DNA from: a virus
Lineage: Duplodnaviria; Heunggongvirae; Uroviricota; Caudoviricetes
DNA: 64,000 bases
Reading direction: 5' to 3' (one strand)
Virus record (IMG/VR): IMGVR_UViG_3300001199_000001
Location: 69,404 to 133,403 of that record
Within the stretch, counting starts at the first letter, position 1. Every line of letters starts with the position of its first letter. A model generated the notes under the pieces. That model saw nothing but the letters and a program-made list of their open reading frames with translations. It searched no databases and had not been told where the DNA came from. Positions 11,870 to 13,473 of the stretch are shown piece by piece. A program made the translations under genes and the position numbers.

Positions 11870-11898
11870 TTGACACAGCGAACATCCGCTGTTAATGT
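11870..11898 (+). promoter_or_regulatory. Promoter of module B (Pro/Met/Thr/Lys tRNAs)
   Basis: TTGACA-N17-TAATGT. Confidence 0.8.
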
Positions 11899-11905
11899 AG
11901 CCACC

Positions 11906-12001
11906 ATGATCACCAAGACAACCACGCCAATGACCATGAAGCCCACCAAGCCGGTGGGGCTGTCTCTGCGTGCGTTGAAGGAACAAGAACCCGGCGGGTA
12001 G
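11906..12001 (+). CDS. Leader peptide B, MITKTTTPMTMKPTKPVGLSLRALKEQEPGG
   Basis: Codons 3-16 are all Thr/Lys/Pro/Met; followed by a terminator. Confidence 0.85.
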   Translation: MITKTTTPMTMKPTKPVGLSLRALKEQEPGG

Positions 12002-12030
12002 TAAGTTCCAAGATCAACAAGTTTCGCGAG

Positions 12031-12066
12031 ACGGCCCCGGCATAAAAACCGGGGCCGTTTCTTTTT
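12031..12066 (+). terminator. Intrinsic terminator (attenuator B)
   Basis: ACGGCCCCGG-loop-CCGGGGCCGT followed by TTCTTTTT. Confidence 0.9.
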
Positions 12067-12079
12067 GTCCATCAATCAT

Positions 12080-12157
12080 CTGTGTGTAGCTCAGTTTGGC
12101 CAGAGTACTCCGTTCGGATCGGAGGGGCCGCAGGTTCAAATCCTGCCACACAGACCA
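12080..12157 (+). tRNA. trnP: tRNA-Pro(CGG)
   Basis: Loop TT-CGG-AT, C1-G72, A73, CCA. Confidence 0.95.
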
Positions 12158-12170
12158 ATTCGAGGCGACG

Positions 12171-12419
12171 ATGAGTAGATGCTCCGTAGACCCTGACCAA
12201 CTGATTAAAGCTCGCGAAGATGCGCGCGCTGCGGGAGACCGCGTCTACGTCGAAGCGCAGAAGCTAGCATCTGAGTTAGCGGAGCAAGTGGGTCTGGCCT
12301 TTCGCGGTGTCGACCTCAGTGCCTATGATCACCTCAAGATCGAGGTTGATCGAGATTTTTTGGATAGTCTTCTGCGGGGTGAACACCTCAACGACGACTT
12401 CCTGAGGGGATGTAAATAA
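12171..12419 (+). CDS. Hypothetical protein
   Basis: GAGG RBS, ATG 12171; fills the gap between two tRNAs. Confidence 0.6.
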   Translation: MSRCSVDPDQLIKAREDARAAGDRVYVEAQKLASELAEQVGLAFRGVDLSAYDHLKIEVDRDFLDSLLRGEHLNDDFLRGCK

Positions 12420-12496
12420 CGGCGTGTAGCGCAGTCTGGTAGCGCACCTGCTTTGGGAGCAGGGGGTCCTCAGTTCGAATCTGAGTTCGCCGACCA
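12420..12496 (+). tRNA. trnP: tRNA-Pro(TGG)
   Basis: Loop TT-TGG-GA, CCA. Confidence 0.95.
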
Positions 12497-12513
12497 ACTA
12501 GGAGACGGCAACC

Positions 12514-12819
12514 GTGAGACTTTATCTCGACGATATCCGCACACCGCCTCCGGGCGAGTGGGTTATCTGTCGAGATGTTGAACAGGCGCAGGCGATCTGC
12601 GCCGCTCACGGTTGCCCAGCCTTTATCTCCTTCGACCACGACTTGGGCGAGGACGTAGCCACCGGTTACGATTTCGCCCACTGGCTGGTCGACAACGACC
12701 TAGACACAGGCGGAGCCTTCATCCCGGAAGGCTTCACCTACAATGTACATTCGGCCAACCCGGTCGGCGCCGCGAACATCACGGGCCTGCTGGACGGTTA
12801 TCTGGAGTTTCGGCGATGA
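12514..12819 (+). CDS. Cyclic-phosphate-processing receiver-like domain protein
   Basis: LYLDD.R.PP...ISFDHDLG...TGYD...VHSANPVG motif set. Confidence 0.8.
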   Translation: MRLYLDDIRTPPPGEWVICRDVEQAQAICAAHGCPAFISFDHDLGEDVATGYDFAHWLVDNDLDTGGAFIPEGFTYNVHSANPVGAANITGLLDGYLEFRR

Positions 12820-12929
12820 GCGCGGAAGACCGCATAATAAATGCGACCCTCGCGATCATCGCCTCGTTAGAGGCACAGCTTAACAATCAGCGCGCGGCGC
12901 TGATCAGGCTTGTAGAGGAGAAAAATAGA

Positions 12930-13007
12930 CAGGGTGTAGCTCAGCATGGCGAGAGCGTTACGTCGGGAACGTAAAGGTCGCTGGTTCAAGTCCAGTCACC
13001 CTGACCA
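12930..13007 (+). tRNA. trnP: tRNA-Pro(GGG)
   Basis: Loop TC-GGG-AA, CCA. Confidence 0.93.
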
Positions 13008-13016
13008 AAGTTTTAT

Positions 13017-13092
13017 TGTGGTATAGCTCAGTTGGTAGAGCGTCGGGCTCATATTCCGGATGTCGCTGGTTCGATCCCAGCTACCACAACCA
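13017..13092 (+). tRNA. trnM: tRNA-Met(CAT); could be Ile2 if lysidine-modified
   Basis: Loop CT-CAT-AT, CCA. Confidence 0.85.
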
Positions 13093-13096
13093 ATTT

Positions 13097-13168
13097 GCCG
13101 ATGCCGTGTGGTACGGGCCTGTCCTTGGTATGGACGGTGGCAGGGTTCGATTCCCTGTTTCGGCTCCA
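13097..13168 (+). tRNA. trnT: tRNA-Thr(GGT), compact D-arm
   Basis: Loop TT-GGT-AT, canonical T-arm, CCA. Confidence 0.8.
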
Positions 13169-13174
13169 GTTTAT

Positions 13175-13248
13175 GCCGCTATAGCTCAGTGGTAGAGCAG
13201 CGCCTTCGTAACGCGAAGATCGGAGTTCGATTCCCCGTAGCGGCACCA
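13175..13248 (+). tRNA. trnT: tRNA-Thr(CGT)
   Basis: thrW-like sequence, loop TT-CGT-AA, CCA. Confidence 0.9.
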
Positions 13249-13306
13249 TTATAATTGTAAGCTTCGTGATGCCTTATCACCGGATAATGTAATACGAAGT
13301 TTACAC

Positions 13307-13382
13307 GCCGGATTAGCTCAGTTGGTAGAGCGGCAGTTTTGTAAACTGATGGTCAGGGGTTCGAATCCTCTATCCGGCACCA
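13307..13382 (+). tRNA. trnT: tRNA-Thr(TGT)
   Basis: Loop TT-TGT-AA, CCA. Confidence 0.95.
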
Positions 13383-13386
13383 GTTT

Positions 13387-13473
13387 GGATCAGTCACCTC
13401 AGCGGCGAGAGGCACGGGCTCTTAATCCGTCAGCGTAAGCTCATCGTGGGTTCGAGTCCCACCTGATCCTCCA
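13387..13473 (+). tRNA. trnK: tRNA with CTT (Lys) anticodon and a long variable arm
   Basis: Loop CT-CTT-AA, V-arm AGC-GTAA-GCT, U73, CCA; 87 nt. Confidence 0.82.

Follow-up and report, generated by a model that had tools for sequence, protein, structure and literature searches.

A predicted leader-peptide attenuator with control codons matching the anticodons of the downstream tRNA genes in a groundwater phage

The window analyzed in this study is a 64,000-nucleotide stretch (positions 69,404 to 133,403 of IMG/VR record IMGVR_UViG_3300001199_000001) of a 278,859-bp phage genome from a groundwater metagenome. One unit of its tRNA array, module B, lies on the plus strand and contains a promoter, a short leader ORF, an intrinsic terminator, eight tRNA genes and small ORFs. 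All coordinates refer to the window. A sequencing-run lookup with positions 11500-13500 matched one groundwater-metagenome DNA run, probably the one from which the genome derives, and no RNA run was listed.

The first tRNA gene, tRNA-Pro(CGG), occupies 12080-12157. It is followed by an 82-aa ORF (12171-12419) without a Pfam or PHROG family, tRNA-Pro(UGG) (12420-12496), a 101-aa cREC_REC protein (12514-12819), tRNA-Pro(GGG) (12930-13007) and tRNA(CAU) (13017-13092). The 101-aa protein carries a cyclic-phosphate processing receiver domain (PF20274, E 2.8e-24; phrog_1479). Three tRNA-Thr genes, with anticodons GGU (13097-13168), CGU (13175-13248) and UGU (13307-13382), and tRNA(CUU) (13387-13473) complete the block. 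All eight were identified by Aragorn. The three tRNA-Pro genes scored 61.3, 60 and 60.8 bits with Rfam in the order given, tRNA(CAU) 66.5, tRNA-Thr(CGU) 60.3, tRNA-Thr(UGU) 69.5 and tRNA(CUU) 45.2 bits. The atypical tRNA-Thr(GGU) was found by Aragorn only, with no Rfam report at E<=0.1. The 87-nt tRNA(CUU) has a long extra arm, and Lys is called from its anticodon alone. tRNA(CAU) is taken to be a probable elongator Met because the leader contains ATG, not ATA. An 11-bp, G+C-rich hairpin without a U-tract (13475-13502; -22.4 kcal/mol), located 26 nt before the module C promoter (13529), probably marks the end of the operon. A 147-aa minus-strand ORF (11632-12075) with no Pfam or PHROG match, antisense to the upstream 67-aa gene and the leader, was treated as spurious.

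Module B begins with a perfect -35 hexamer, TTGACA, at 11870-11875. The -10 hexamer, placed by its 17-nt spacing at 11893-11898, is the weak TAATGT, which keeps A2 and T6 and matches TATAAT at 3/6 positions; for this reason it fell below the threshold of the promoter scan. The 31-codon leader ORF (11906-12001; stop codon TAG, 11999-12001) starts 7 nt past the -10 hexamer, so that its ATG at 11906 coincides with the predicted transcription start of the promoter at 11870. Across the genome, 30/190 TTGACA sites have an ATG 35-36 nt from the T of the hexamer, compared with about 2-3 at other offsets. Since most of these 30 ATGs open long ORFs of 57 to 642 codons, this promoter class appears to produce leaderless mRNAs. 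The leader ORF of module B stands in the same register and is likely to be translated, judging from its position. Modules C, D and E have the layout TTGACA-N17-hexamer-N6/7-ATG in front of them too, as do many protein genes. A transcript that reads in from the 67-aa gene upstream would not be leaderless. The terminator lies between the promoter and the first tRNA gene, and no TTGACA-type promoter was found downstream of it inside the module B tRNA block.

Read from the ATG at 11906 to the TAG, codons 3-16 (11912-11953; TKTTTPMTMKPTKP) are ACC AAG ACA ACC ACG CCA ATG ACC ATG AAG CCC ACC AAG CCG, exactly as an earlier sequence-only reading had given them. The run contains no codons other than the eight that form Watson-Crick pairs with the downstream anticodons (CGG, TGG, GGG, CAT, GGT, CGT, TGT and CTT), and every anticodon has its codon in the run, as that reading had also proposed. 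Its further observation that Lys is encoded only by AAG was confirmed (4 AAG, 0 AAA). A run of 14 codons drawn from this eight-codon set is unique in the six frames of the 278,859-bp genome; the next longest is 8, and ~1e-6 such runs are expected. The leader ORF itself has no Pfam or PHROG match. Each of the five plus-strand leaders in the window was compared with each tRNA block, and the true assignment of leaders to blocks outperformed all 119 other permutations, matching 68/142 codons against a permutation mean of 28. Leader B has 16 codons that match block B and 2-7 that match each of the other blocks. Leader A (Glu/Asp) has a weak codon match in the window and is conserved as a peptide instead.

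The terminator consists of a 13-bp stem (10 G-C pairs) formed by 12028-12040 and 12049-12061, an 8-nt loop and TTTTT, with the T-tract reaching 12066, 14 nt before the first tRNA gene. At -28.2 kcal/mol the hairpin is the strongest terminator-like site in the 6-22 kb region of the window. A terminator had been proposed at 12031-12066; its end at 12066 stands, while the stem starts at 12028 rather than 12031. The antiterminator pairing proposed between 11956-11966 and 12028-12038 was recovered as 11 bp including one G.U, overlapping the 5' arm of the terminator. It forms part of an extended 21-bp helix between 11956-11978 and 12014-12038, with a duplex energy of about -28.6 to -30.5 kcal/mol. 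The complementarity of -30.5 kcal/mol was equaled by 0/2000 dinucleotide shuffles and 2/1989 natural windows of the genome.

The leader can be described by four segments. Segment 1 (11919-11947), within the control codons, pairs with segment 2 (11953-11978; core 11956-11966) as an anti-antiterminator. This helix, 11919-11947 with 11953-11977, is present in the minimum free energy fold of 11906-12070 and overlaps the control codons. Segment 2 may instead pair with segment 3 (12014-12040), whose core, 12028-12040, serves as the terminator's 5' arm. The antiterminator (2:3) and terminator (3:4) are mutually exclusive, and the core of segment 2 resembles segment 4. Duplex energies are -17.9 (1:2), -28.6 (2:3) and -29.6 kcal/mol (3:4). 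Folding the complete leader gives 1:2 together with 3:4 (-67 kcal/mol, z -4.7), and RNA ending ahead of segment 4 (truncated at 12044 or 12048) folds as 2:3. Because equilibrium folding of the nascent RNA in the absence of a ribosome favors the antiterminator, the untranslated default may be read-through, unlike trp.

These numbers bear on coincidence as an explanation of the codon match and of the complementarity. The element is small, which is the single point in favor of coincidence, and the uniqueness of the codon run, the assignment permutations and the shuffle statistics all reject it, as does recurrence of the design in the relatives described below and in an unrelated phage. We give chance practically no weight.

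Direct, T-box-like sensing of tRNA by an untranslated leader RNA would involve the same regulated quantity, tRNA status, and the same output, a terminator/antiterminator switch. An Rfam scan of 6000-22000 at E<=0.1 returned tRNAs and weak chance plastid matches antisense to tRNAs, with no T-box or other cis-regulatory family. In addition, 14 in-frame codons for eight different tRNAs, a reading frame that is kept in relatives and an ATG placed where transcription starts fit a ribosome and not a single specifier loop. We regard a T-box-like mechanism as very improbable.

The effect of a translating ribosome was modeled by folding the leader with the ribosome footprint masked, a check that the sequence-only reading had suggested. 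In this model the stall position decides whether the antiterminator stays free, which agrees with an attenuator. The antiterminator probability was at least 0.81 for every A-site position from codon 2 to codon 14, and 0 for those from codon 16 to codon 25. The only Watson-Crick codon for tRNA-Pro(CGG) is CCG at codon 16. A stall at codon 16, and probably at codon 15, should favor termination over read-through in the model, since codon 16 is so near segment 2 that the ribosome there covers the antiterminator. The proposal that the leader is complete for all eight tRNAs therefore holds in that a codon is present for every anticodon, but the role of tRNA-Pro(CGG) is doubtful because its codon is so near segment 2. 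The stop codon lies 33 nt beyond the antiterminator core. A ribosome there leaves segment 2 uncovered, and masks at codons 27-32 still permitted 2:3 pairing in the pure secondary-structure model. Termination behind a fast ribosome consequently rests on a steric and kinetic argument. The earlier description of the geometry as classical is supported by the leader ORF, the control run, the terminator, the mutually exclusive antiterminator and the anti-antiterminator; it is not exactly that of trp because of the position of the stop codon.

The uncovered segment 2 and the codon 15-16 stalls are two of the observations that would suit a different output. The mini-ORF might sense decoding but act through Rho loading, RNase processing, precursor stability or a trans-acting leader RNA or peptide, or act with the opposite sign, a stall lowering tRNA output. 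Two other modules of the array, C and D, which lack a clear U-tract terminator, point the same way. Module B, however, combines a textbook terminator with an alternative helix of 21 bp so placed that stalls at codons 2-14 would free it, and the 2:3 and 3:4 helices covary in the E-type sibling leaders examined below. We consider another output unlikely, though it is the strongest of the alternatives.

Sibling leaders were found in eight cultured Dolichocephalovirinae relatives: CcrColossus, CcrPW, CcrBL9, RB23 and the Brevundimonas phages Kabachok, Bambus, Kikimora and Bajun. Each has the same layout of mini-ORF, terminator and tRNA block, with a leader composition that matches the block. Among the leaders that precede homologous blocks in the eight relatives, 62% of residues match the leader's own block and 14% match other blocks. 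Ahead of the Pro..Ser block the relatives carry one merged leader, in which T, L, S, H, K, P and A are abundant. The present phage differs in having an array of ~43 tRNAs in which the Pro..Ser unit is divided among modules B, C and D, and every one of these has its own matched leader. Internal Met codons in the leader and a tRNA(CAU) in the block occur together in this phage and in none of the eight relatives. In the Bertelyviruses the block ends with tRNA-Trp and the merged leader has a Trp codon. Tracking of single residues (Cys in E-type and Trp in BCD-type leaders) holds in the control region only; in some relatives Cys or Trp occurs in the structured 3' part without a matching tRNA.

In an alignment of nine E-type leaders, ~93% of cells are paired for the antiterminator and likewise for the terminator, 3-4 pairs per helix are changed on both sides, and slid partners pair in at most 65%. 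The leaders of the relatives have no detectable sequence similarity to leader B, and the relation is one of position and design only. In 50,697 phage records, all blastn matches ('distant') to 11866-12079 were of the chance or terminator-like kind. Viral contigs scanned for exact copies of a piece of tRNA-Pro(CGG) yielded 0 matches, as did metagenome contigs scanned with a back-translated pattern for TPMTMKPTKP. The covariation described above is that of the E-type siblings, no homologue of leader B having been found. The 82-aa ORF within module B had one weak match in viral contigs and none in metagenomes. An 82-aa protein encoded upstream of tRNA-Trp was found by tblastn in 10 records of the phage collection and had no match in viral contigs. 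The same design as module B is present in L035, a contig of an unrelated IMG/VR phage.

The sibling ORFs are either unannotated or annotated as hypothetical proteins (e.g. HOU02_gp552, BAJUN_02440 and CcrRB23_gp135). It could be argued that module B opens with an ordinary small phage gene that has its own promoter and terminator, that a Thr/Lys/Pro-rich peptide is its product, and that the tRNAs are expressed constitutively by read-through or from unrecognized promoters. Annotation of the siblings as hypothetical proteins in CcrBL9, RB23, Bajun, Kabachok and Bambus would suit such a gene, as would conservation of the A-type and E-type leaders at the peptide level. The conserved peptide stretches coincide, however, with the structured RNA segments. 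An ordinary gene would also leave unexplained the 14-codon run limited to eight cognate codons, the one-to-one assignment of leaders to blocks, the tracking of blocks across phages and the likeness of segment 2 to segment 4, which the sibling leaders share. This explanation is distinctly improbable.

We consider it probable, from the features of the sequence, that module B is a ribosome-mediated (leader-peptide) transcription attenuator controlling eight tRNA genes and two or three small ORFs. Such a reading, first made from the DNA alone, is supported by the sequence features that could be tested and by the eight relatives whose leaders track their own blocks. In the proposed mechanism, host RNA polymerase would start at or next to the A of the ATG at 11906, and a 70S ribosome would translate the leaderless ORF. 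When charged tRNA for ACC/ACA/ACG, CCA/CCC, AUG or AAG is scarce, the ribosome would be held in codons 2-14, where it would melt the 1:2 helix and free segment 2. Segment 2 would then pair with segment 3 ahead of the synthesis of segment 4, no terminator would form, and polymerase would enter the tRNA genes. When decoding is fast, the ribosome would cross segment 2 and park at the stop codon within the antiterminator loop, allowing the 3:4 hairpin (12028-12061 plus the U-tract) to form and halt transcription before tRNA-Pro(CGG). The net effect would be that the tRNA set represses its own synthesis by negative feedback, codon by codon. Translation of the ORF, conditional termination and the direction of the response are all predicted features of this scheme.

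Codon compensation is one long-debated reason for the presence of tRNA genes in phages. Others are the replacement of degraded host tRNAs and escape from tRNA-targeting defense (PMC10264068, PMC11464382). A possible, if somewhat doubtful, role for the attenuators is on-demand counter-defense. The phage would poll codon classes, detect the loss of particular host tRNAs through host shut-off or defense anticodon nucleases, and transcribe the exact replacement block along with the RNA-repair-associated cREC_REC protein. If so, the leaders would record which tRNAs are attacked in nature, and phage tRNA arrays would be inducible rather than constitutive.

To our knowledge the regulation of phage tRNA genes is essentially unstudied, and we know of no earlier case in which tRNA genes are regulated through translation of their own codons; module B would be the first. 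Full-text literature searches, which reached only a minority of subscription-journal papers and so do not prove that none exists, returned no account of tRNA genes under leader-peptide or attenuator control. In the phiCbK genome paper (PMC3556154), tRNAs and TransTermHP terminators are described, with no mention of such control. The model predicts that depletion of one tRNA induces one block. Leader codons would provide a sequence-only guide to the tRNAs that share a transcription unit and help to assign ambiguous tRNAs, such as CAU read as Met through the leader ATG. The leaders may also represent compact natural sensors of codon-specific decoding speed. Experiments are feasible because the design recurs in a subfamily with cultured Caulobacter and Brevundimonas phages.

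The closest known systems are the multivalent leader-peptide attenuators of enterobacteria, namely the ilvGMEDA leader (Ile/Val/Leu) and the thr operon leader (Thr/Ile). Module B shares with them a short 5' ORF whose codon run covers several amino acids, four RNA segments that form 1:2, 2:3 and 3:4 helices, and an intrinsic terminator just ahead of the first regulated gene, with read-through predicted upon a stall in the run. Unlike them, it would regulate the tRNAs that read the control codons and not biosynthetic enzymes, so the loop would report tRNA supply and close on the tRNA itself. Its match is codon-for-anticodon and covers eight isoacceptor classes for four amino acids, its mRNA is predicted to be leaderless, its stop codon lies in the antiterminator loop, and its setting is a phage. 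The pheM leader of pheST, the phenylalanyl-tRNA synthetase operon, is similar in that leader-peptide attenuation acts on a gene of the translation apparatus rather than on biosynthesis, but it controls a synthetase, involves one amino acid and is cellular. T-boxes likewise use tRNA status to select terminator or antiterminator before translation-related genes, but there a single uncharged tRNA is bound by the RNA itself, by way of a specifier codon and the acceptor end, and no ribosome takes part. All described leader-peptide attenuators known to us regulate genes for amino-acid biosynthesis or synthetases. The genes behind leader B are eight tRNAs and small ORFs and belong to neither class, and because the genes under its predicted control are tRNAs, module B is best viewed as a candidate variant of the leader-peptide attenuator rather than an ordinary member.

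The phage contig is 278,859 bp long with a G+C content of 56%, and the window covers bases 69,404-133,403 of that single contig. A groundwater metagenome is the sole public run containing the window. Synteny and protein matches affiliate the phage with the Dolichocephalovirinae, giant prolate Caulobacter/Brevundimonas phages such as CcrColossus, CcrPW, CcrBL9 and the vB_BpoS phages. Aragorn identified 39 tRNA genes at 7.1-20.7 kb of the window, and the tRNA genes of this region represent all twenty amino acids. Other genes were not called by default Aragorn. tRNA-Glu(UUC) and tRNA-Asp(GUC) (10593-10740) have odd T-loops and were confirmed with Rfam (45 and 41.6 bits). 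A probable tRNA-Tyr(GUA) (19224-19307) was obtained with relaxed Aragorn, and a probable tRNA-Lys(UUU) (~13729-13800) was recognized only by eye inside module C, whose leader has the sole AAA codon. The region also holds a release factor-like gene (9483-10145) with a GGQ motif in its 9624-10145 part. Its apparent interruption is an in-frame TGA (9585-9587), and the N-terminal 34 codons are in frame with the 173-codon remainder.

Module B (11870-13473) begins with a perfect -35 TTGACA (11870-11875), followed by 17 nt, a weak -10 hexamer (TAATGT), 7 nt and the ATG at 11906. The leader B ORF has 31 codons and ends with TAG at 11999-12001. Codons 3-16, TKTTTPMTMKPTKP, are limited to ACC, ACA, ACG, CCA, CCC, CCG, ATG and AAG, and all eight are present. 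They are the Watson-Crick partners of the block B anticodons, namely Pro CGG/UGG/GGG, CAU, Thr GGU/CGU/UGU and CUU. Lysine is encoded by AAG four times and never by AAA. The sequence-only reading had pointed out the codon run, its anticodon partners and the AAG-only lysine, and all of its sequence statements on module B were verified. The eight codons make up 14.5% of the codons in the phage's long ORFs, so the expected number of 14-codon runs over six frames of the whole genome is ~1e-6. The leader B run is the only one, and the runner-up has a length of 8. When the five plus-strand leaders were matched by codon to the five tRNA blocks, the true pairing was the best of 120 permutations; leader B has 16 codons matching block B and 2-7 matching each other block.

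The terminator stem pairs 12028-12040 with 12049-12061 (13 bp, 10 of them G-C) around an 8-nt loop and is followed by UUUUU. This hairpin is the strongest terminator-like site within 6-22 kb; 14 nt separate its end from tRNA-Pro(CGG), and block B has no TTGACA-type promoter downstream of it. The full leader (11906-12070) folds at -67 kcal/mol (z-score -4.7) into the terminator hairpin plus a composite helix of 11919-11947, within the control codons, with 11953-11977. When the terminator 3' arm is removed, 11956-11978 pairs instead with 12014-12038. Numbering the segments 1 to 4 from the control codons to the terminator 3' arm, the duplex energies are -17.9 kcal/mol for the anti-antiterminator (1:2), -28.6 kcal/mol for the antiterminator (2:3) and -29.6 kcal/mol for the terminator (3:4). 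The segment 2 core, GGGGCUGUCUC, is a near-copy of segment 4, GGGGCCGUUUC. Complementarity of the terminator 5' arm to the upstream 119 nt (-30.5 kcal/mol) was equalled by 0/2000 dinucleotide shuffles and in 2/1989 other genome windows. That the codon match and the complementarity both arose by chance is hardly credible.

We consider it likely that module B provides negative feedback of tRNA supply on synthesis of the eight-tRNA block. Slow decoding of the block codons would keep the ribosome in the control run and allow the antiterminator to form, and transcription would proceed through the eight tRNAs, an 82-aa ORF and a cREC_REC protein. With fast decoding the transcript would end at 12066. 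Alternative structures were folded with a ribosome mask extending from A site -15 to A site +9, +12 or +15. The antiterminator probability was ≥0.81 with the A site at codons 2-13, ranged from 1.00 to 0.44 at codon 14 depending on the assumed footprint, and was lost at codons 16-25. Thus most stalls in the control run are predicted to free the antiterminator, while a ribosome that moves onward would cover it. In these models module B has the four-segment logic of classical attenuators.

Four departures from the textbook were evident, one being the weak -10 hexamer. The sequence-only reading had called the attenuator complete for all eight tRNAs. All eight cognate codons are indeed present, but CCG at codon 16, the sole Watson-Crick codon of leader B for tRNA-Pro(CGG), is too near segment 2, as probably is codon 15. 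Stalling at either codon would put the ribosome over segment 2, which makes coverage of all eight tRNAs doubtful. The proposed classical antiterminator geometry held for the exclusive helices, but the stop codon falls within the antiterminator loop, 33 nt beyond the core of the antiterminator (11956-11966). By the folding model alone, 2:3 pairing is still allowed behind a terminating ribosome (codons 27-32). We infer that termination under fast decoding would depend on the bulk of the ribosome in the 61-nt loop and on the brief interval before segment 4 emerges. Equilibrium folding of ribosome-free nascent RNA favoured the antiterminator, so the default of an untranslated leader B may be read-through. 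There is a small chance that the switch depends on translation but has another output or the opposite sign. Direct sensing of tRNA by the leader RNA is very improbable, as an Rfam scan of 6000-22000 (E≤0.1) gave no match to a T-box model.

The leader B ATG is not preceded by a Shine-Dalgarno sequence. Of the 190 TTGACA sites in the phage genome, 30 have an ATG at a distance of 35 or 36 nt, counted from the first T, compared with 2-3 at neighbouring offsets. ORFs of 57 to 642 codons start at most of these 30 ATGs. This register argues that the promoter class yields leaderless mRNAs, which seem to be the rule for the sigma-70-type promoters of this phage. Leaderless mRNAs are common in Caulobacter. 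The leader B ATG is in the exact register of this class, indirect evidence that makes the mini-ORF a candidate for leaderless translation, for which a Shine-Dalgarno sequence is not expected.

No homologue of leader B was detected in phage records, viral contigs or metagenome contigs. Eight relatives (CcrColossus, CcrPW, CcrBL9, RB23, Kabachok, Bambus, Kikimora and Bajun) have three leader types in the syntenic tRNA region. An A-type leader of 21 codons precedes Glu and Asp; a merged leader rich in T, L, S, H, K, P and A precedes a Pro-Thr-Lys-Leu-His-Ala-Ser block; and an E-type leader rich in Y, R, Q, N, V, I and F precedes Tyr-Phe-Val-Ile-Gln-Asn-Arg. Where the relatives have one middle unit, this phage has modules B, C and D, each with its own matched leader. 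In the nine phages taken together, 62% of leader residues find a matching tRNA in the block behind their leader, against 14% in the other blocks of the same phage. Bertelyviruses have a Trp codon in the middle leader and a middle block ending with tRNA-Trp. Two pairings are peculiar to this phage among the nine: internal Met codons with a tRNA(CAU), and a tRNA-Cys with a Cys codon in the control part of leader E. By sequence comparison, the predicted attenuator design is conserved in relatives, and where leaders differ between phages they follow the tRNA content. Were leader B just an ordinary small gene ending in its own terminator, this tracking and the codon-level match would go unexplained; that reading is quite unlikely.

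Since no homologue of leader B was detected, covariation evidence comes from the helices of its E-type siblings and not from its own. In nine aligned E-type leaders, 93.9% of antiterminator cells and 92.9% of terminator cells were paired, falling to ≤65% once partners were slid by one to three columns. Both sides had changed in 3 antiterminator and 4 terminator pairs, which in so small a sample of related phages is supportive rather than decisive. The 21-residue A-type peptide, MTY....EREA..GRDT.AA, is kept in Caulobacter and Brevundimonas phages (window 10499-10564; phage records L001 5597-5662, L002 6461, L003 17812, L088 10921, L089 10910). Its codons match its own block weakly, so something else, for example RNA structure or an effect of the nascent peptide, may account for its conservation.

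The cREC_REC protein (PF20274, cyclic-phosphate processing receiver domain; E 2.8e-24) is encoded at 12514-12819 within the module B operon. A candidate gene of 52 codons (12816-12974) starts at an ATGA overlap with the cREC_REC stop and extends 45 nt into tRNA-Pro(GGG). Between tRNA-Thr(CGU) and tRNA-Thr(UGU), at 13250-13305, there is a 21-bp hairpin (-22.7 kcal/mol) along with an exact TATAAT (13250-13255); the two could be an internal promoter or processing signal. The tRNA(CUU) (13387-13473) has 87 nt, a class II-like long extra arm and discriminator U, and relatives have the same form with 84-90 nt. It is only tentatively assigned to Lys, by anticodon alone.

The shared cREC_REC protein was the sole route to L035 (IMGVR_UViG_3300028588_000819), a contig from an unrelated phage with 48% G+C over the locus. 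At its leader locus (L035 5625-5800), a 33-codon ORF draws every one of codons 4-22 from the set Ser, Leu, Tyr, Cys, Glu and Trp. Downstream come a terminator (stem GGCGA..UCGCC with U6) and 13 tRNAs, which cover the same six amino acids and no others. The cREC_REC homologue (41% identical; L035 4001-4366) sits upstream of that contig's tRNA array, ~1.4 kb away. The PF20274 domain is tied to RNA-repair systems, and its presence hints that tRNA arrays may be connected with the repair of cleaved RNA.

Module B passed the structural tests for a leader-peptide attenuator on its leader ORF, control codons, terminator, antiterminator and anti-antiterminator. Leader-peptide control of tRNA genes was not described in the literature searched, a partial coverage that included the phiCbK genome paper and does not prove absence. 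The design makes it possible to test directly how phage tRNA arrays are regulated and what purpose they serve. Its predicted mode of action is that of the multivalent leader-peptide attenuators of amino-acid operons. Unlike those attenuators, module B would regulate the very tRNAs that read its control codons, with codon-for-anticodon resolution, a leaderless start and a phage setting.
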